From a virus (Duplodnaviria > Heunggongvirae > Uroviricota > Caudoviricetes): a DNA stretch of 8,177 nucleotides. The first letter of the stretch is position 1; each line of letters starts with the position of its first letter. Shown here piece after piece: positions 1,179 to 7,858 of the stretch. The DNA lies in the IMG/VR virus record IMGVR_UViG_2690316153_000010; one strand, written 5' to 3'. Under the pieces are notes generated by a model that was given only the letters and a program-made list of their open reading frames with translations, was not told where the DNA came from and searched no databases. The position numbers and the translations under genes were made by a program.

Positions 1179-1610
1179 TCACCCCCTGAATCCTGCCGGG
1201 ATCTGGCTGTAGTCCACGTTGTCGTAACTGGCTTTGAAGTACGGGTCTTCACGTTTTTCTGTGTGCGTGCTGACGGACGGCGATAAGCGCAGGGAAAGCT
1301 CATCCCATTTTTCCCGCAACTTCGACGGGCTGATCCACATTGCATAGGCATACACCAGTTCCTTGCAGACATACGTTCCCCGTTCATTTCCCCCATGAAT
1401 CACACTCACCGGGTCAACACCCAAATTCTGGGTGTTGGTCAATTCATGAACAAGCTCAACAGTTTGTTGGCTGGAAAGAAACTTTCCTGGCTCCTTGGTT
1501 CTGGCATTTGCACCAGATGCTACTGCTGCGCGATGCAGATCGTTCAGGCTGTAACGCCCATAAGCATCACGACGAACTTCAATACCATCAATGACCATCA
1601 GATTATTCAT
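1179..1610 (-). CDS. KilA-N domain protein, chimeric: KilA-N N-terminal domain fused to the C-terminal ~50 aa of the replication-initiator-like protein
   Basis: ORF 1179-1643 trimmed to the ATG at 1610, which has a GAGGAG RBS 9 nt upstream. GTYVCKELVYAYAMWISP resembles the KilA-N signature. Bases 1179 to about 1330 are near-identical to 3483 to about 3640. Confidence 0.7.
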   Translation of the reverse strand: MNNLMVIDGIEVRRDAYGRYSLNDLHRAAVASGANARTKEPGKFLSSQQTVELVHELTNTQNLGVDPVSVIHGGNERGTYVCKELVYAYAMWISPSKLREKWDELSLRLSPSVSTHTEKREDPYFKASYDNVDYSQIPAGFRG

Positions 1611-1629
1611 ACTTCGTTTCTCCTCTTGA

Positions 1630-2019
1630 TCAGGCGGCTGCACCCGCCGTTTTCTCGTACTTACTGATAGTGATCTCGACCTTCCCTTTCGGGATAACCG
1701 GTCCCCACTCCACCAGCATTCTTTTCACCTGACTGTCGTCTTCCCACACACCCGCATGGGTCAGGGCGTCAAACAGCGCCTTGTTATAGTTGTCCAGATC
1801 GCGGATCCGGTTATCCGGAGGAAACAACACGATCTCCACTGAAGCAGGTGCCGACGTTGGTTTCGGCAGACGACGTAACTGCTCAACTATTGCTGCGCAC
1901 GCCGCGCTCTGGAATTTGCGCCCCGCTGCGCTTATCAGACTCTTACCAGCAAACGCCCCTTTGTTGGGGTGTCGCCAGTACGTGTTCACGCTGGGCGGGA
2001 AAGGCAAGATCAGCTTCAT
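1630..2019 (-). CDS. rusA: RusA-family Holliday junction resolvase (copy 2)
   Basis: 129-aa ORF differing from copy 1 at 2 residues (E31A, I45V). Same motifs. ATGA overlap with the upstream LexA-like gene. Confidence 0.88.
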   Translation of the reverse strand: MKLILPFPPSVNTYWRHPNKGAFAGKSLISAAGRKFQSAACAAIVEQLRRLPKPTSAPASVEIVLFPPDNRIRDLDNYNKALFDALTHAGVWEDDSQVKRMLVEWGPVIPKGKVEITISKYEKTAGAAA

Positions 2020-2342
2020 ACTTTCAGGCCCCTCTCATGTAACCAGTGGGCTGCACGCAGCCTGGCGTTTTCCTCACCGGCAAGCAGTGCGCGGATAATC
2101 CCGACCGCCTCGCTGTCGTCGTCCTTCACCGCGGTATGAAGAGTTATCCCCCGGGCCACGCCACGCTTTATCGTGATGACGCCTTTTTTCTCCAGTGCGC
2201 GAAGATGCTCCACCGCTGCATTCACCGAACGGTATCCCAGCATGGTTGCCACCTCCTGATTGGTTGGCGGAAAGCCACGTTCTTGCTGGTAAGAAATCAG
2301 CATATCCAGCACCTGCTGCTGGCATTGAGTTAACGTCGTCAT
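2016..2342 (-). CDS. LexA N-terminal DNA-binding-domain-like protein with no S24 peptidase domain
   Basis: 108-aa ORF. Residues 4-66 (LTQCQQQVLDMLISYQQERGFPPTNQEVATMLGYRSVNAAVEHLRALEKKGVITIKRGVARGITL) align with the LexA winged-helix domain ([65 protein letters not shown]). No Ala-Gly cleavage site and no Ser/Lys dyad. ATGA overlaps at both ends. Confidence 0.7.
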   Translation of the reverse strand: MTTLTQCQQQVLDMLISYQQERGFPPTNQEVATMLGYRSVNAAVEHLRALEKKGVITIKRGVARGITLHTAVKDDDSEAVGIIRALLAGEENARLRAAHWLHERGLKV

Positions 2343-2992
2343 GCCGCCATCTCCCTGACCAGTTTTTCCGCCTGCTGGCGAACCTGCGCCAGAAAGGCCT
2401 CACCACATGCCTCAAGTTCATCGCGCCCGATGTAGCTGATTGCCGGTCCCTTCCGGGTCTTGTCGAAAACAGCAATAGCACCAGCGAAGAAAGCGCCTGT
2501 CGGCACCTGCTTCTCGTCCTTCGGGATAAACCAGGCTGGCAGTTCAAAACCAATACGCCCGCGAATAAAAGCAATATGGTCTGCATCTTCCGGCCACCAA
2601 ACTTCGCTGGTGGCAGCTTTGATCAGGAAAACATAGCGCCCGCCTTTATCACGCATGGCACTGGCATGCTTCATGATGTAACGCATGCCGGTGATGTATT
2701 GCCCCTCATGCTGACTGGCGCGGCTGTACGGGGGATTACCAAAGGCAGCACCTTTAAGCTCCGCAAGACGTTCTGACCAGTCATGCGCCAGCGCGTTGTC
2801 TTCCGCCGTGTAATACGCGGCGCATTTGGCGTTATCACCATCAGTAAACAGATCCAGAACAAACGGGCCAAACAGGGTGTTAATTCCCCAGAAAATGTTG
2901 TCCGGCGTGCGCCACTGATCGCCCACTTCCTTCAGTTCATGGGCTGGTTTGTTCCGCAGCTCCACCAGCGCCTGGCAATATTTATTACTCAT
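2339..2992 (-). CDS. Phage Dam-like N6-adenine DNA methyltransferase (copy 2)
   Basis: ORF 2339-3025 trimmed to MSNKYCQ at 2992 by comparison with copy 1 and the TAATG overlap with the upstream stop. 4 amino-acid differences from copy 1. NPPY motif present. Confidence 0.8.
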   Translation of the reverse strand: MSNKYCQALVELRNKPAHELKEVGDQWRTPDNIFWGINTLFGPFVLDLFTDGDNAKCAAYYTAEDNALAHDWSERLAELKGAAFGNPPYSRASQHEGQYITGMRYIMKHASAMRDKGGRYVFLIKAATSEVWWPEDADHIAFIRGRIGFELPAWFIPKDEKQVPTGAFFAGAIAVFDKTRKGPAISYIGRDELEACGEAFLAQVRQQAEKLVREMAA

Positions 2993-3480
2993 TAAGCCCC
3001 CACGTAATTCCCTGACAGATACCACTCTTCACCCGATGCAGCGCGCTTGCTGCTTTTCCGTAAACACCGCTCACGACGCGCAAGAAAATTGTTTCGCTCT
3101 TGCTGGGAGTGGCTTTCACGGAATGCCGCCATCCACACCGTTGCAGCACGACGGTATAAGCCCCTGGACTCCAGTTCTTCCGCCTGGCGGGTCAGGCACA
3201 AAATCACCCGGGGATCGTTAGTGCCGACATAGAAATTGCGCACAGGTCTGGATTCACGAACTGGTTGCGGTTCCGGCTCCTGCGGTATCTCAGTCAGCCG
3301 CGGGAAATGTCTGCGTGTATCCCCTTCACAACGGTGAGCCACACGCCCACTCTGACGTAACTTGCTTGCTGACTGCAGAACGCGCTGTCGTGAGTAACCT
3401 GCAAAAGCATCCGCAATGTCTCCGGAAGTACACCCCGGATGGGCTTCAATGAATTTCTGAACGTCATTCAAAAGACTCAT
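2992..3480 (-). CDS. Hypothetical regulator, possibly PerC-family-like
   Basis: 162-aa ORF (track ORF 2992-3486 trimmed to MSLL, since the upstream stop is at 3483-3485). The segment AEELESRGLYRRAATVWMAAFRES...ERNNFLARRERCL resembles the PerC-family motif as I recall it. Family assignment is tentative. Confidence 0.5.
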   Translation of the reverse strand: MSLLNDVQKFIEAHPGCTSGDIADAFAGYSRQRVLQSASKLRQSGRVAHRCEGDTRRHFPRLTEIPQEPEPQPVRESRPVRNFYVGTNDPRVILCLTRQAEELESRGLYRRAATVWMAAFRESHSQQERNNFLARRERCLRKSSKRAASGEEWYLSGNYVGA

Positions 3481-3482
3481 GA

Positions 3483-4424
3483 TCACCCCCTGAATCCTGC
3501 CGGGATCTGGCTGTAGTCCACGTTGTCGTAACTGGCTTTGAAGTACGGGTCTTCGCGTTTTTCGGTGTACGTGCTGACGGACGGCGATAAGCGCAGGGAA
3601 AGCTCATCCCATTTTTCCCGCAGCTTCGACGGGCTGAGCACGTTACGGCACCAGAACGGATCGCGACTGACGCGGCTGTACATCTCGCAGATTTGTTTAT
3701 GAGTACGACCATCCTGCACACACATCAGGCGAATTTCGTTTGCCCAGGCTGTCCAGTTCGGTTCTTTGGGACGAACCACCTCGCCGTCACATTCGGCGGC
3801 ATGCTCGTACAGGGCGATGATTTTTTTCCAGAGCCACTGTGCGCAGGTCAAATCATCCTGCGTCCCCCACTGGCGCTTTTTAGGGCTGAATACAACCGCA
3901 TCAGGATGGCGAGTTAAAAAATCCTGTTCAGCCGTCTGCGTGTCCGGTTGCGAAGCGTCCGGACGAGAAGTTTTTTTATCTGACGGATCATGTTTTGATT
4001 TTACTGACGGATCCCCACCAGATTCTGACGGGTGAAAACCCGCTTTTTTGCCAGATTTCGACGCATCAAATTTTGACGGGTCAGATTTTGATGCGTCAGA
4101 TTTTGACGGGTCAGAATCTGACAGTTGAGAAAATGCCGCTGCCTGAAGCTTCGCAACGTTAAGCTGATAAACATTCGACGCATTGCGGTTACCCTGGCGA
4201 CGCGCCCTACGCGTTAACCAGCCTTCTGCTTCCAGCCGTGCGATAGCCGTTCTGACGGTACTCATCCCCGCGCCAATCTGGCGGGCAATGGTTTCAATTG
4301 ATGGCCAGCACACACCTTCGTCATTACTGAAATCAGCCAGGCGGGCCATAATTGCCACGCTGGATAATTTCATGCCTGATGCAGCGCAACCATCCCATAC
4401 ATAGCCGGTTAATTTAGTGCTCAT
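3483..4424 (-). CDS. Replication initiator-like protein: N-terminal HTH/winged-helix domain, low-complexity DPSKS repeat linker, C-terminal tail shared with the KilA-N gene
   Basis: 313-aa ORF. N-terminal segment (GYVWDGCAASGMKLSSVAIMARLADFSNDEGVCWPSIETIARQIGAGMSTVRTAIARLEAEGWL) looks like the HTH domain of phage replication initiators. Internal tandem DNA repeats resemble lambda O-type iterons. Position downstream of cro/cII-like genes fits. Confidence 0.65.
   Translation of the reverse strand: MSTKLTGYVWDGCAASGMKLSSVAIMARLADFSNDEGVCWPSIETIARQIGAGMSTVRTAIARLEAEGWLTRRARRQGNRNASNVYQLNVAKLQAAAFSQLSDSDPSKSDASKSDPSKFDASKSGKKAGFHPSESGGDPSVKSKHDPSDKKTSRPDASQPDTQTAEQDFLTRHPDAVVFSPKKRQWGTQDDLTCAQWLWKKIIALYEHAAECDGEVVRPKEPNWTAWANEIRLMCVQDGRTHKQICEMYSRVSRDPFWCRNVLSPSKLREKWDELSLRLSPSVSTYTEKREDPYFKASYDNVDYSQIPAGFRG
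3975..4127. repeat. Iteron-like 15-bp tandem repeats (consensus AGATTTTGACGGGTC, core TGACGG); candidate origin of replication inside the initiator gene
   Basis: Five contiguous 15-bp units at 4053-4127, plus three degenerate copies at 3975-3989, 3996-4013 and 4021-4035 interspersed with A/T runs. In the coding frame they give the pentapeptide repeat DPSKS/DASKS. Confidence 0.6.
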
Positions 4425-4772: not shown

Positions 4773-5365
4773 GCGTTAGTTTCTCCACAGTCACGACACG
4801 CCACGGCGCCCGGAGCTGCACACTCGCGGGCGTCATTACTTTCTGAAATGCAAAAAATTTTGTAGACCAGTGCTGCATGCTCCTGCAGCTTCGAAATTGA
4901 GAGGTACAGCTCGTCGTTAATTGCTGTCTTCTCATGCGGTTCCACTACACCGTCTTCAATTGCTGAACGAATCTGTTTTGAATAACTGCCGATCTGTTCA
5001 ATGACTTCCAGCAGGCGCTGGTTAATATCGGCGTTGTCCACATCCTCGACGTCAGGAAGAGACACAAAGACGCCATTTGCAGACTGCGCCACAGCGTCAG
5101 CAATGAAGTGAGTTCCACCAGCACGTTGCAAAATCATTGCCCATCCCAGCGGGAAAATCTGATCGCCATCGGCACGAAGGCGGTTAAATAATGCGTTCTC
5201 TGTTACATCCAGCCAGTCAGCTGCTTCAGCGTAACCACCCGGCAACTTTGCGATAGTTTTTCTGACAGCTTTCACGTACCACTCAGGCTGTTTTTCTACT
5301 TTCCAGTGATGCTTACCCACGGTTAGCCTCATCGTTCTGTGGTTTCTGTTAATCGATTTATCCAT
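4769..5365 (-). CDS. CII/YdaT-like regulator (positional cII equivalent)
   Basis: ORF 4769-5434; start uncertain (candidate ATGs at 5365, 5377, 5332), chosen to limit overlap with cro. HTH-like segment [22 protein letters not shown]. Lies directly downstream of the Cro/YdaS-like gene. Family assignment by recollection only. Confidence 0.5.
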
Positions 5366-5558
5366 TAGATTTTTCATAAAGCTCAGGTTTAAATGGCAAC
5401 CGTCCGCAAGTTCTATATGCAGCTTCTGCTGCACGTCCTTTTGGAATTAACTGGCCCGGACGGTTTCGCCACTGATAAACGGCTTCAGTTGTTATGCCGA
5501 AAAAAGCAGCAACTTTCTCAATACTGCCGAAGTAGCTTTCGATATCGTCAGTTGTCAT
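5358..5558 (-). CDS. Cro/YdaS-like HTH regulator
   Basis: 66-aa ORF transcribed divergently from the repressor. GGAGGG RBS 4 nt upstream of the ATG. HTH-like segment SIEKVAAFFGITTEAVYQWRNR. Confidence 0.7.
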   Translation of the reverse strand: MTTDDIESYFGSIEKVAAFFGITTEAVYQWRNRPGQLIPKGRAAEAAYRTCGRLPFKPELYEKSNG

Positions 5559-5655
5559 ACGCCCTCCAAACTAAGTTTTGTTAGATGCTAATTACAAATC
5601 TATCTTTGGTCAATAAAAACTAAGATTACTTAGCGATTAAAGAAATGGTGCTCCT
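5559..5655. promoter_or_regulatory. Divergent immunity promoter/operator region (pR for cro, pRM for the repressor) with CTAA-N6-TTAG operator palindromes
   Basis: Operator-like sites CTAAGTTTTGTTAG (5571-5584) and CTAAGATTACTTAG (5620-5633), plus overlapping TTAGatgCTAA (5581-5591). Minus-strand -35 TTGACC (5608-5613) and, after a 17-bp spacer, -10 TAGCAT (5585-5590) upstream of cro. Confidence 0.5.
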
Positions 5656-6282
5656 ATGGAAACGGTTGGTCAGCGTATAAAAGCTCTGAGAAGAGTTACC
5701 AGAACGTCCCAGAAAGAATTGGGTAAATTTTGTGGAGTAAGCGACGTTGCTGTGGGGTACTGGGAGAAAGACATCAATACCCCTGGCGGGGAGGCACTTT
5801 CGAAATTAGCGAAGTTCTTCAATACGTCAATAGATTACATTCTTTACGGTGCTGAGTTTGAAGGCAAACTCGTCACAAACATGCGCAGAGTTCCTGTAAT
5901 ATCGTGGGTTCAGGCTGGGCAGTTTACTGAGTGCAGGGCAGCAGAAGTGTTTAGTGAAGTGGACAAGTGGGTAGATACATCATTAAAGGTTGGTGATAAC
6001 TCATTTGCATTAGAGGTTAAAGGTGACTCCATGACTAACCCTAATGGCCTCCCAACAATACCAGAAGGCGCAACAGTGATTGTAGATCCAGATGCAGAAC
6101 CTCGTCATGGAAAAATAGTCATCGCTCGACTTGATGGAACAAACGAAGCTACAGTAAAAAAATTAGTCATCGATGGCCCTCAAAAGTTTTTAGTGCCATT
6201 AAATCCTCGGTATCCCAACATCCCTATCAATGGTAATTGCCTTATCATTGGTGTAGTCAAAGGAGTTCAATACGAACTCTAA
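5656..6282 (+). CDS. cI-like prophage repressor: N-terminal XRE-type HTH plus C-terminal S24 (LexA-like) autopeptidase domain
   Basis: 208-aa ORF. HTH at the N-terminus, Ala-Gly cleavage site in WVQAGQF, catalytic Ser in KGDSM and Lys in TVKKL. Divergent from cro. Confidence 0.9.
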   Translation: METVGQRIKALRRVTRTSQKELGKFCGVSDVAVGYWEKDINTPGGEALSKLAKFFNTSIDYILYGAEFEGKLVTNMRRVPVISWVQAGQFTECRAAEVFSEVDKWVDTSLKVGDNSFALEVKGDSMTNPNGLPTIPEGATVIVDPDAEPRHGKIVIARLDGTNEATVKKLVIDGPQKFLVPLNPRYPNIPINGNCLIIGVVKGVQYEL

Positions 6283-6304
6283 GACCTCTCTTCTCTAACT
6301 AAGG

Positions 6305-6337
6305 CACCGAACCAAGAAAAGTTTGGTGTTTTCTCTT
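6305..6337 (+). terminator. Candidate intrinsic terminator downstream of the repressor gene
   Basis: Stem CACCGAAC (6305-6312) pairs with GTTTGGTG (6321-6328) including one G-U, with an 8-nt loop, followed by TTTTCTCTT. Confidence 0.35.
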
Positions 6338-6364
6338 GCCATGATAACTAAGTTAAGTTAGATT
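6336..6364 (+). promoter_or_regulatory. Candidate early-left promoter (pL-like) with overlapping operator (OL-like)
   Basis: -35 TTGCCA (6336-6341), 17-bp spacer, -10 TAGATT (6359-6364). The operator CTAAGTTAAGTTAG (6348-6361) has the same CTAA-N6-TTAG architecture as the cro/cI intergenic sites. Confidence 0.35.
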
Positions 6365-6447
6365 TTATATCAAAGATAACGAACAGGCAGGACGCCCACG
6401 AAGTAGCCGCCTGGGGCATATGAAGTCCAGGATGATTCGTTAGCAAC

Positions 6448-6471
6448 AAAAAAGCGCCCTACAGGACGCTT
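6448..6471 (-). terminator. Intrinsic terminator for the minus-strand gene 6510-7001
   Basis: On the minus strand: AAGCGUCC, loop UGUA, GGGCGCUU (8-bp GC-rich stem with one G-U), then a U-tract (plus-strand A-run 6448-6453). Lies about 40 nt past the stop codon. Confidence 0.55.
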
Positions 6472-6472
6472 A

Positions 6473-6485
6473 GCTCTTTAACAAT
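6473..6485 (+). promoter_or_regulatory. boxA-like antitermination motif (GCTCTTTAACAAT)
   Basis: 13 of 13 match to the core of the E. coli rrn boxA as I recall it (TGCTCTTTAACAATTTA). Plus-strand, downstream of the candidate pL and just after a hairpin. Confidence 0.4.
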
Positions 6486-6501
6486 CTGGATATCCACAAC
6501 A
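6483..6501. repeat. Left arm of a 19-bp inverted repeat flanking the gene 6510-7001
   Basis: AATCTGGATATCCACAACA; its reverse complement TGTTGTGGATATCCAGATT matches 7044-7062 at 18 of 19 positions. Core TGGATATCCA is itself palindromic. Confidence 0.6.
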
Positions 6502-6509
6502 GTAGTAAT

Positions 6510-7001
6510 CTACAGATTGCCGTTAAGTTTTCTGGACAACTCCTCAATGGATGGAGGCGATACGTAATCCGGATTTTTATTCATCAGAAACTTATTTTCA
6601 CAGTGGAGGCACCTGCTTTTATGAAAAAGCTCATCTTCGCTAACCGGGAATGGTTGAAGTATCGATACTATCTTTTGTCCAAAACATTTTGGGCAAAGAT
6701 GCATGGTTATGCTGCCACCGTTCACGATTACCTCCTTCGAGTATACAAAAGTACCCGACTCAAGTTGGTTAAGGATATAGCCTTCCGTCTGAGCCTCAAA
6801 GTTTTCGAATTCTGCAATTTTAGCTTTGAGAGAAGCATTTATTTCTTGATAAGAGCCCACCAGTTCAACGAGAGACACGCATTCGCGCTGAATAGACGCA
6901 AGCTTTGAGTTCAGCTCACCAATAGCCGCATTTACTTCAGCTTGAGTTTTTGCCTCGTTCATTAGTTTTGCAATCTGGGCTGTTTCACGAATAGCCGTCA
7001 T
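6510..7001 (-). CDS. Hypothetical coiled-coil plus zinc-ribbon protein (moron in the rexAB-equivalent position); function unknown
   Basis: ORF 6510-7289 trimmed to the ATG at 7001 (163 aa); an alternative GTG at 7025 has an AAGAG RBS. N-terminal heptad-like helical region, then CPKC and CLHC about 20 residues apart. AT-rich relative to flanks. Own terminator; opposite orientation to neighbours. Confidence 0.6.
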   Translation of the reverse strand: MTAIRETAQIAKLMNEAKTQAEVNAAIGELNSKLASIQRECVSLVELVGSYQEINASLKAKIAEFENFEAQTEGYILNQLESGTFVYSKEVIVNGGSITMHLCPKCFGQKIVSILQPFPVSEDELFHKSRCLHCENKFLMNKNPDYVSPPSIEELSRKLNGNL

Positions 7002-7043
7002 TGCTGCCGTTAATTCAGCGATCACATTGAATACTCTTATTGT

Positions 7044-7062
7044 TGTTGGGGATATCCAGATT
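7044..7062. repeat. Right arm of the 19-bp inverted repeat flanking the gene 6510-7001
   Basis: TGTTGGGGATATCCAGATT, an inverted match to 6483-6501. Sits 19-40 nt upstream of the candidate start codons of the minus-strand gene. Confidence 0.6.
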
Positions 7063-7072
7063 AACCGAATCC

Positions 7073-7093
7073 TTGTTGTTGGGGAATAACCAG
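7073..7093. repeat. Direct-repeat copy of the right inverted-repeat arm
   Basis: TTGTTGTTGGGGAATAACCAG versus TTGTTGTTGGGGATATCCAG at 7040-7059. The 13-bp core TTGTTGTTGGGGA is perfect in both, 33 bp apart. Confidence 0.5.
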
Positions 7094-7312
7094 GTCCACC
7101 TCGCCTGATGTGGCTAAAAGCAGGCACATAACAGCTAAGTATTTTCAACCAGAGAGAATCCTTAGCGTTGTGGTGAATGCGGCTCAGCGCACGCGGGTTA
7201 AGGTTGAGGCTGACAGTCGACCTTCTGTGGATACCCACCCGCCTGGTGTGCAACCTTCGCCAGGCACCGGGAGGCACCCGGCACCACAACTTTATGCTGT
7301 GTGTAGTCCTGG

Positions 7313-7359
7313 CGGTACCAGTTTGTACCCTTGCTTCCGGCTGGTACCGTCCTTTTTTG
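7313..7359 (+). terminator. Terminator-like hairpin in the GC-rich untranslated leader of the early-left operon
   Basis: CGGTACCAG (7313-7321) pairs with CTGGTACCG (7341-7349) around a 19-nt loop, followed by TCCTTTTTT (T-run 7354-7359). The large loop makes this tentative. Confidence 0.3.
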
Positions 7360-7495
7360 CAAAACAGAGAAGAGCATCACCGGACGACGGGCTCATAACC
7401 CAATCCATCCGGGCGGCTGCCACCGCAGGTGTTCTTCTCTGTTTTGTGGAGAAACCAACCGACCTTGCAGGGTCGATATGATGAGGAGCAGCAAA

Positions 7496-7858
7496 ATGGC
7501 TAGCGAACGCAGTACTGATGTGCAGGCATTTATCGGGGAGCTGGACGGCGGCGTATTTGAAACCAAAATCGGCGCAGTTCTCAGTGAGGTCGCTTCCGGT
7601 GTGATGAACACGAAAACCAAAGGGAAGGTCTCACTCAATCTGGAAATCGAACCGTTTGATGAGAACCGTGTGAAAATCAAACACAAACTCTCATATGTTC
7701 GCCCAACTAACCGCGGGAAAATTTCCGAAGAAGACACCACCGAAACGCCGATGTATGTCAATCGCGGTGGTCGCCTGACTATTCTGCAGGAAGACCAGGG
7801 ACAATTACTGACTCTTGCCGGTGAACCTGACGGAAAACTCCGCGCAGCAGGTCGTTAA
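7496..7858 (+). CDS. Hypothetical early-left protein (120 aa, hydrophilic, acidic)
   Basis: ORF 7331-7858 trimmed to the ATG at 7496, which has a GAGGAG RBS (7484-7489) 6 nt upstream. No arginine-rich N-terminus, so not N-like. Confidence 0.6.
   Translation: MASERSTDVQAFIGELDGGVFETKIGAVLSEVASGVMNTKTKGKVSLNLEIEPFDENRVKIKHKLSYVRPTNRGKISEEDTTETPMYVNRGGRLTILQEDQGQLLTLAGEPDGKLRAAGR

Follow-up and report, generated by a model that had tools for sequence, protein, structure and literature searches.

Is a short palindrome found on both sides of a phage repressor gene the operator through which one repressor controls two promoters? The question is raised by an 8,177-nucleotide stretch of DNA from a virus of the class Caudoviricetes (IMG/VR record IMGVR_UViG_2690316153_000010; the whole stretch is called the window below), in which the motif CTAANNNNNNTTAG (CTAA-N6-TTAG) is present between a cro-like gene and a cI-like gene and again downstream of the latter. 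The palindromes, which have the form CTAAG-N4-(C/G)TTAG, are very probably the operators of the immunity switch of an Escherichia coli prophage, and would be bound by the 208-residue CI-like repressor so as to silence the early promoters pR and pL. This conclusion draws on motif statistics, positions relative to promoters, conservation, co-variation with the repressor and domain homology, all of which were directly observed. The logic of the switch is that of textbook lambda and P22 systems, and no description of its operator sequence was found in the searchable literature.

Palindromes and promoters around the repressor gene

Exactly three matches to the motif were found in the window, compared with a mean of 0.06 in 200 dinucleotide-preserving shuffles of it, none of which reached three. 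Two of the sites, CTAAGTTTTGTTAG at 5571-5584 and the perfect palindrome CTAAGATTACTTAG at 5620-5633, lie 49 bp apart within the 97-bp gap between the two genes and resemble operators OR1 and OR3 of a right operator region (OR). The third, CTAAGTTAAGTTAG at 6348-6361, begins 66 bp past the cI stop codon and resembles the first site (OL1) of a left operator region (OL). The complete genome of phage vB_EcoM-689R6 (43,469 bp) has the exact motif at the three homologous positions only. The flanks of the sites are shared as well (AACTAAG...TTAGAT), so that the real operator is probably about 18 bp long.

Each site has a defined position relative to a predicted promoter. The pR-like promoter, TTGACC (5613-5608) and TAGCAT (5590-5585) separated by 17 bp, occupies 5585-5613 on the minus strand, scores 9/12 in a promoter scan and reads into the cro-like gene; among 19 aligned relatives its -35 and -10 hexamers carry 1.6 and 1.5 bits, respectively. 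The OR1-like site, on the cro side, abuts the -10 hexamer and covers the predicted pR start, and the OR3-like site, on the cI side, lies 6 bp upstream of the -35 hexamer. The pL-like promoter at 6336-6364 on the plus strand is sigma-70-like, with TTGCCA (6336-6341) and TAGATT (6359-6364) again 17 bp apart and a score of 9/12, and points away from cI. It begins where the repressor gene's transcript is predicted to end: the cI intrinsic terminator (6301-6337, plus strand) consists of a hairpin at 6301-6332 followed by UUUUCUCUU, with an RNA folding energy of -13.4 kcal/mol and a z score of -2.9, and its end coincides with the pL -35 hexamer. An equivalent terminator is annotated in phage SfV. 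The OL1-like site lies in the pL spacer and reaches three bases into the -10 hexamer. Relatives have TTGACC or TTGACA, a 17-bp spacer and TAGATT at the pL place, the block TTGACC-N6-CTAAGTTAAGTTAGATTTT being nearly invariant among them, and in every relative examined this promoter is aimed at a yfdP-yfdQ-xis-int operon.

An earlier sequence-only reading of this DNA had listed the three sites, and its coordinates and sequences proved exact. Its placement of pL, upstream of an accessory gene (a 'moron') at 6510-7001, is likewise borne out, since the third site lies within the conserved outward promoter predicted downstream of cI. It had also let this site overlap both promoter hexamers, which holds for the three bases of the -10 and fails for the -35, from which the site is separated by a 6-bp gap.

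Two weaker sites are absent from the earlier list. Midway between the exact OR sites lies CAAATCTATCTTTG (5595-5608), an OR2-like sequence with two symmetric mismatches that sits in the pR spacer and touches the -35 hexamer. The equivalent place holds a perfect CTAATCTTTATTAG in the Rahnella relatives L016 and L029, 24 and 25 bp from the neighbouring sites, degenerate palindromes (1.23 bits) in other relatives, and a true third OR site in relatives with a P22-type repressor. The region is probably tripartite with a weak middle site, as judged from these alignments. At OL, the single exact site is accompanied 36 bp upstream by CCAAGAAAAGTTTG (6312-6325), which has two mismatches and lies inside the cI terminator; at this place a one-mismatch CTAAGAAAAGTTTG or CTAAGTTTAGTTTG is found in 689R6, mEp460, LLS and most relatives, and perfect sites in L019, L023, L024 and L025. 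A search of the window for CTAAGNNNNCTTAG with two mismatches gave a count equal to chance and no additional sites.

A scan of one genome per species yielded 20 loci with cI products 64-90% identical to the repressor, from nine genera (Enterobacter, Kosakonia, Kluyvera, Serratia, Rahnella, Yersinia, Rouxiella, Providencia and Proteus). The exact motif is present at -86/-87 from the cI ATG in 18 of the 20 and at -37/-38 in 17, the rest having one-mismatch versions, and in all 14 relatives with a Cro homolog (61-85% identical) it recurs 22-113 bp, mostly 66-79 bp, past the cI stop. Eight further loci, whose repressors are at most 46% identical, have no motif match anywhere. The positions of the sites are kept across the nine genera although the surrounding intergenic DNA diverges: over 19 aligned OR regions the half-sites carry 1.73 bits at 5571-5584 and 1.88 bits at 5620-5633, compared with 0.88 for other intergenic columns, and 5620-5633 is the best-conserved element of the cro-cI gap. 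The OL1-like sequence CTAAGTTAAGTTAG recurs unchanged in 689R6, mEp460 and LLS, as it does in 10 of the 14 relatives with Cro. Two of the cI relatives that have neither a Cro homolog nor a downstream operator, L022 and L031, contain a second CTAAG pair with the same 49-bp spacing (positions 1011 and 1060, and 935 and 984, respectively) about 450-570 bp upstream of cI, which suggests a duplicated or rearranged control region.

Phages with other repressors carry other motifs at the same places. SfV, SfIV and the Escherichia coli K-12 element e14 have GTACC-N5-GGTAC-type sites at both OR and OL, ST64B and phiNP have TTGCG...CGCAA-type sites at both, YeP1 has GTCAGATATCCTAC-type sites and AH07 has GTAACTAAAGGTACA, each again at OR and OL. 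In these immunity types the OL motif sits around a TTGACA-type promoter just past the cI terminator. Each repressor type thus has its own motif at both places, so that the motif changes with the repressor while the layout stays constant. This is the pattern to be expected if one repressor serves two control regions, as the earlier reading had proposed. mEp460 and vB_EcoM-689R6 share the operators of the window, whereas SfV, SfIV, e14, ST64B, phiNP, YeP1 and AH07 have others.

Operator specificity of the predicted repressor

The repressor gene (5656-6282, plus strand) encodes 208 residues with Pfam matches to HTH_3 and Peptidase_S24. Residues 3-65 match the DNA-binding domain of P22 c2 (2r1j and 3jxb, phmmer E 4.4e-11), and residues 75-205 match the C-terminal domain of lambda cI (2ho0, E 5e-28). 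The sequence elements VQAG|Q, GDSM and KKL are in register with VQAG|M, GNSM and KKL of lambda cI, which we take to be the Ala111-Gly112 cleavage site, Ser149 and Lys192. Judged by its solved relatives, the protein is a hybrid of a P22-c2-like helix-turn-helix (HTH) domain and a lambda-cI-like domain predicted to cleave itself. The cro-like gene on the other side of OR (5358-5558, minus strand, 66 residues) matches Pfam P22_Cro (E 4.4e-11), and the closest solved relatives of its product are N15 Cro (2hin, E 1.4e-4) and P22 Cro.

The operator consensus of P22, ATTTAAGATATCTTAAAT, has TTAAG half-sites and four central base pairs that are not contacted (PMC5175364). The window sites, (A)ACTAAG-N4-CTTAG, equal this consensus with C in place of T at position 3. 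They share the P22-type geometry, being symmetric CTAAG-N4-(C/G)TTAG sequences whose central bases vary across relatives; the TTAAG half-site of P22 immunity specificity is absent, all of the window sites having C at position 3. This indicates an operator predicted to be of P22 type with altered specificity. The P22 repressor binds a T3-to-C variant only non-specifically, at least 16-fold more weakly (PMC4267663), and for this reason an immunity type separate from that of P22 would be expected.

The protein differs in parallel with the site. The HTH segment is GVSDVAVGYWEKD compared with GVSNVAISQWERS in P22, and the recognition helix reads SDVAVGYWEKD where P22 has SNVAISQWERS, with GY for SQ and D for N (residues G34, Y35 and D30 of this protein). 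The helix GVSDVxVGYWEKD is present in other CTAAG-type loci (GVSGV in L024). A P22-like helix, GVSHVAISQWEKE, is found in the Photorhabdus and Xenorhabdus relatives L030, L032, L033, L035 and L037, and these have TTTAAG-N4-CTTAA sites at -75, -51 and -26 from the ATG plus one past cI. Co-variation of the helix with operator position 3 is the strongest in silico evidence that the CI-like protein reads these sites. The Photorhabdus and Xenorhabdus loci together with the CTAAG loci form a natural series for how position 3 is read, and the window offers a natural example of a c2-type helix change (SQ to GY, N to D) alongside a change at that position.

The likeness to P22 c2 extends to the homologous DNA-binding domain, the xTAAG half-sites with four central base pairs, the 24-25 bp spacing within OR and the placement of sites at both OR and OL. 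The differences are CTAAG here and TTAAG in P22, a C-terminal domain closest to that of lambda cI, and the quality of the sites, of which P22 has six good ones whereas here two, the middle one at OR and the second at OL, are degenerate. The repressor/operator pair should be orthogonal to that of P22, although its site is one symmetric base apart from the P22 site.

The early-left transcript and its leader RNA

Fixing the predicted start of the early-left transcript exposes a leader RNA and, further on, a terminator problem. At its 5' end the predicted pL transcript carries a conserved structured RNA of 68 nucleotides (6377-6444, plus strand; 90.6 bits with our covariance model R1). Two hairpins are enclosed by a closing stem; compensatory change is heavy in the closing and inner stems, whereas there is no variation in a small hairpin, GGC-AGGAC-GCC, or in the joining strands. 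In the alignment, 96.3% of the cells pair and 10 of 14 pairs have compensatory changes on both sides, and covariation is 0.559, compared with 0.129 for shuffles and at most 0.10 for slid controls. More than 100 IMG/VR contigs contain the RNA, as do SfV, SfIV, ST64B, phiNP, YeP1, AH07 and mEp460, and it is found, unannotated, on the minus strand of E. coli K-12 within e14 (NC_000913, 1,202,109-1,202,177); its range extends to Yersinia, Pantoea and relatives from Photorhabdus and Xenorhabdus, including several of the loci with the P22-like helix. At 66 of 119 loci with this RNA, a promoter scoring at least 9/12 ends 5-22 nucleotides, mostly 11-14, before it. LLS-type phages, which have the same immunity, lack the RNA. 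Rfam scans of the entire window and, more narrowly, of 6340-6500 matched it to no family, and a literature lookup by its sequence string gave no match. The RNA is undescribed, and it is of greater interest than the operators.

The nearest known counterpart is the antiterminator RNA put of HK022, about 70 nucleotides directly downstream of pL in a lambdoid phage without N (PMC9378689). Likewise, the family to which these phages belong has been reported to be without an N gene or protein (PMC3851460), and here too intrinsic terminators stand further along. However, HK022 putL consists of two successive stem-loops where this RNA has a closing stem around two hairpins. Moreover, put elements come as a putL/putR pair, whereas the window, 689R6, SfV and e14 each have a single copy and no putL/putR-like pair, and the RNA does not belong with put. 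Model R1 found nothing in the HK022 genome better than an E value of about 1. Absence of N together with downstream terminators makes a cis-acting role in read-through an attractive hypothesis. By analogy, the RNA might be a factor-independent cis antiterminator of a new class, unrelated to put and gated by the repressor, that carries transcription past the accessory-gene slot and the terminator at 7311-7358; we consider this specific role possible but doubtful.

Beyond the leader lies the accessory gene, which encodes 163 residues on the minus strand (6510-7001), antisense to pL. Its only family is phrog_1244, of unknown function, and PADLOC and Pfam searches gave no function. Its own intrinsic terminator at 6452-6471 (minus strand) combines a hairpin of about -12 kcal/mol with a U6 run. 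Read on the plus strand, that hairpin is weak (-7.5 kcal/mol) and has no U-run, so that the pL transcript should cross 6510-7001 in antisense. Such passage had been put forward in the sequence-only reading, and the lack of a good plus-strand terminator at 6452-6471 speaks for it.

The accessory gene occupies a slot whose cargo is exchanged between phages: 689R6 and SfIV have different cargo in place of 6490-7041, and SfV, mEp460 and e14 in place of 6445-7095, while in LLS-type phages pL is joined directly to sequence at about 7096. Minus-strand cargo is also found in SfIV, YeP1 and AH07. The gene is flanked by 26-nucleotide inverted repeats (6483-6508 and 7037-7062) that are 85% complementary, and the right arm is tandemly repeated (TTGTTGTTGGGGAWAWCCAG; 7034-7051 and 7067-7084). 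The exchange breakpoints relative to 689R6 and SfIV, 6489 and 7042, fall inside the repeat arms, which could be promoter and terminator modules shared by a 'moron slot', or recombination sites.

Past the slot, an element at 7137-7360 (plus strand) aligns over its full length with the STnc100 family (Rfam RF02076; 40.3 bits, E 3.5e-6), its score being below the gathering threshold of 47 bits, so that it is STnc100-like and does not count as a member. In K-12 e14, the annotated open reading frame (ORF) ymfH overlaps the homologous non-coding region. The element ends in a strong intrinsic terminator (7311-7358, plus strand; -23.3 kcal/mol followed by U6, z score -2.9) that a simple terminator scan missed because of its long loop. 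The same locus has been reported as sRNA-17 of E. coli K1 RS218, as an ArcA-modulated RNA without an Rfam homolog (PMC7719688); its published primers map to 7166-7190 (plus) and 7325-7356 (minus). It was reported on the opposite strand, with a stated 5' end that is the complement of a canonical terminator, and this strand assignment may, from the sequence, be wrong. The genes that follow are all on the pL strand, beginning with a yfdP-like gene at 7490-7858 and, in relatives, continuing with yfdQ, an HD hydrolase gene, xis and int. Since the terminator at 7311-7358 comes before yfdP, expression of the early-left genes would need read-through or antitermination.

This arrangement also allows a different reading, that the site downstream of cI is indeed an operator and its promoter makes only a short regulatory RNA, the 68-nucleotide element ending no later than the hairpin at 6452-6471, or at 7358, with no early-left operon and little antisense transcription. 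The element does start only a few bases past the predicted transcription start, the strong terminator does precede yfdP, and N protein is missing from the family (PMC3851460). However, the plus-strand hairpin that follows the element is weak and lacks a U-run; SfV and e14 have ORFs on the same strand immediately after the element, without an intervening terminator; and the promoter scan detected no other promoter for the yfdP to xis-int genes, all of which are on the pL strand. It likewise found none reaching 8/12 that could serve the accessory gene or transcribe the STnc100-like element separately. A promoter serving a short RNA alone is therefore improbable, and we keep to pL as the predicted promoter of an early-left operon.

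The proposed switch and related systems

In the switch as we propose it, a repressor dimer would bind sites of about 18 bp, A-A-C-T-A-A-G-N4-C-T-T-A-G-N-N. At OR, occupation of 5571-5584 over the pR start and of the weak site at 5595-5608 over the spacer and -35 hexamer would turn off cro and the early-right operon. The site at 5620-5633, over the presumed maintenance promoter region of cI, would be the likely Cro target and could serve negative autoregulation. At OL, binding at 6348-6361 over the pL spacer and -10 hexamer, and at the weak site 36 bp upstream, would silence an early-left operon predicted to contain, in order, the 68-nucleotide leader RNA, the accessory slot, the STnc100-like region, yfdP and yfdQ through to xis and int. 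During the SOS response, RecA-stimulated self-cleavage at the Ala-Gly bond would let pR and pL fire together, with starts predicted near 5578 (minus strand) and near 6370 (plus strand), and the pL transcript would then run antisense through 6510-7001. OR and OL lie about 0.75 kb apart, compared with about 2.4 kb in lambda, and a C-terminal domain of the lambda type makes it plausible that the repressor binds them cooperatively or with looping. The order of affinities among the sites, the transcription starts and the reach of the pL transcript are, like binding itself, predictions of this scheme.

Several observations weigh against this scheme or parts of it. All six cI relatives that lack a Cro homolog lack the downstream site too. 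When one mismatch is permitted, 7 matches are found in the whole 689R6 genome where 10.9 are expected, and without such enrichment it is positional conservation that argues for the weak sites; in the window, the weak sites of OR and OL have two mismatches each, which leaves OL with a single full operator. The pL -35 hexamer of the window, TTGCCA, is imperfect. For the maintenance promoter pRM, the best plus-strand candidates between 5540 and 5665 score at most 8/12 in the promoter scan and none is conserved. Transcripts from pL would meet the terminator at 7311-7358 before reaching any early-left gene, and the detection of sRNA-17 in a lysogen (PMC7719688) implies other promoters nearby. Finally, the searchable literature yielded no binding, footprint or transcription-start data for this repressor type and no operator data for SfV, e14 or mEp460, the GenBank record of SfV giving only a 'putative operator region'.

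The link between the downstream site and Cro could also mean that the palindromes are read mainly or only by Cro, as in Cro autoregulation, or by another factor such as a host protein, ArcA included. Cro proteins share operators in known lambdoid switches, and the downstream site accompanies Cro in 14 of 14 relatives and is absent from those without it. ArcA control of an RNA has been reported in mEp460-like prophages (PMC7719688). The GTTA repeats in the third site have a superficial likeness to ArcA boxes. An ArcA box has two repeats about 11 bp apart, and those in the third site are 5 bp apart, with the sRNA-17 locus (7166-7356) about 800 bp away; the repeats were rejected as an ArcA box on these grounds. 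The c2-operator geometry and sequence of the sites, the homology of the N-terminal domain of CI to c2 and the co-variation of its helix with position 3 likewise speak for the repressor, and reading mainly or only by Cro or another factor is very unlikely. A motif without regulatory role, produced by chance or base composition in AT-rich gaps where short AT palindromes are common, would agree with the lack of one-mismatch enrichment but is scarcely credible given three matches where 0.06 are expected, a count equalled by none of the 200 shuffles, positions kept over nine genera and a motif that is swapped with the repressor type.

As a lambdoid switch, the locus has a divergent cro/cI pair around a short gap with repeated palindromes, an HTH repressor whose C-terminal domain is of the self-cleaving LexA/S24 type, and, at a second locus, the same operator over an outward-facing promoter past cI. 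Lambdoid switches have three operators side by side at each control region, spaced by some 24 bp; here OR has two exact sites with a two-mismatch one midway, and OL has one exact and one two-mismatch site. Its likeness to lambda itself lies in the divergent genes, the predicted self-cleavage of the repressor, the common operator at pR and pL, and the CII/CP76-family gene downstream of cro. It differs from lambda in operator sequence and HTH type, in having no rexAB between cI and pL, in the absence of N from the family (PMC3851460), and in that a pRM activated from OR2 was not identified in the promoter scan. SfV, SfIV, e14 (cohE-croE), ST64B and mEp460 share the whole succession of cro, OR, cI, terminator, OL with pL, 68-nucleotide element, slot, STnc100-like element and yfdP-yfdQ through to xis-int. 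On this comparison of sequences, the group is a set of predicted immunity specificities mounted on a common chassis.

The immunity region is 94-99% identical to those of vB_EcoM-689R6, vB_EcoS-569R4 and mEp460, within the lambdoid group of SfV, SfIV, e14 and ST64B, and the lysogen FDAARGOS_1058 matches the window at 100% identity over 5340-6460. Like e14, 689R6 is integrated at icd; its tail genes are Mu-like. Of 5,426 complete E. coli genomes, 517 contain at least 80% of the 1.1-kb cro-OR-cI-OL segment, and the region also occurs in nine other genera of Enterobacterales. With the operators, pR and pL known, homoimmune prophages become predictable and a very common prophage can be typed for immunity.

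Two further features of the window lie outside the immunity region. Positions 1-1333 and 1586-3637 form an imperfect direct duplication of rusA, a DNA methyltransferase gene and the 3' end of a replication gene, with blocks 96-100% identical; an ORF for a LexA-like protein of 108 residues (2016-2342) is present in the second copy only. This duplication could reflect either a genuine tandem rearrangement or an error of assembly. The O-like replication gene (3483-4424) contains, at 4052-4126, four to five 15-bp iterons resembling CAGATTTTGACGGGT. They account for an Rfam hit to mir-5880, which was dismissed as spurious. The iterons encode a repeated SKSD/PSKS peptide and probably mark the phage origin.

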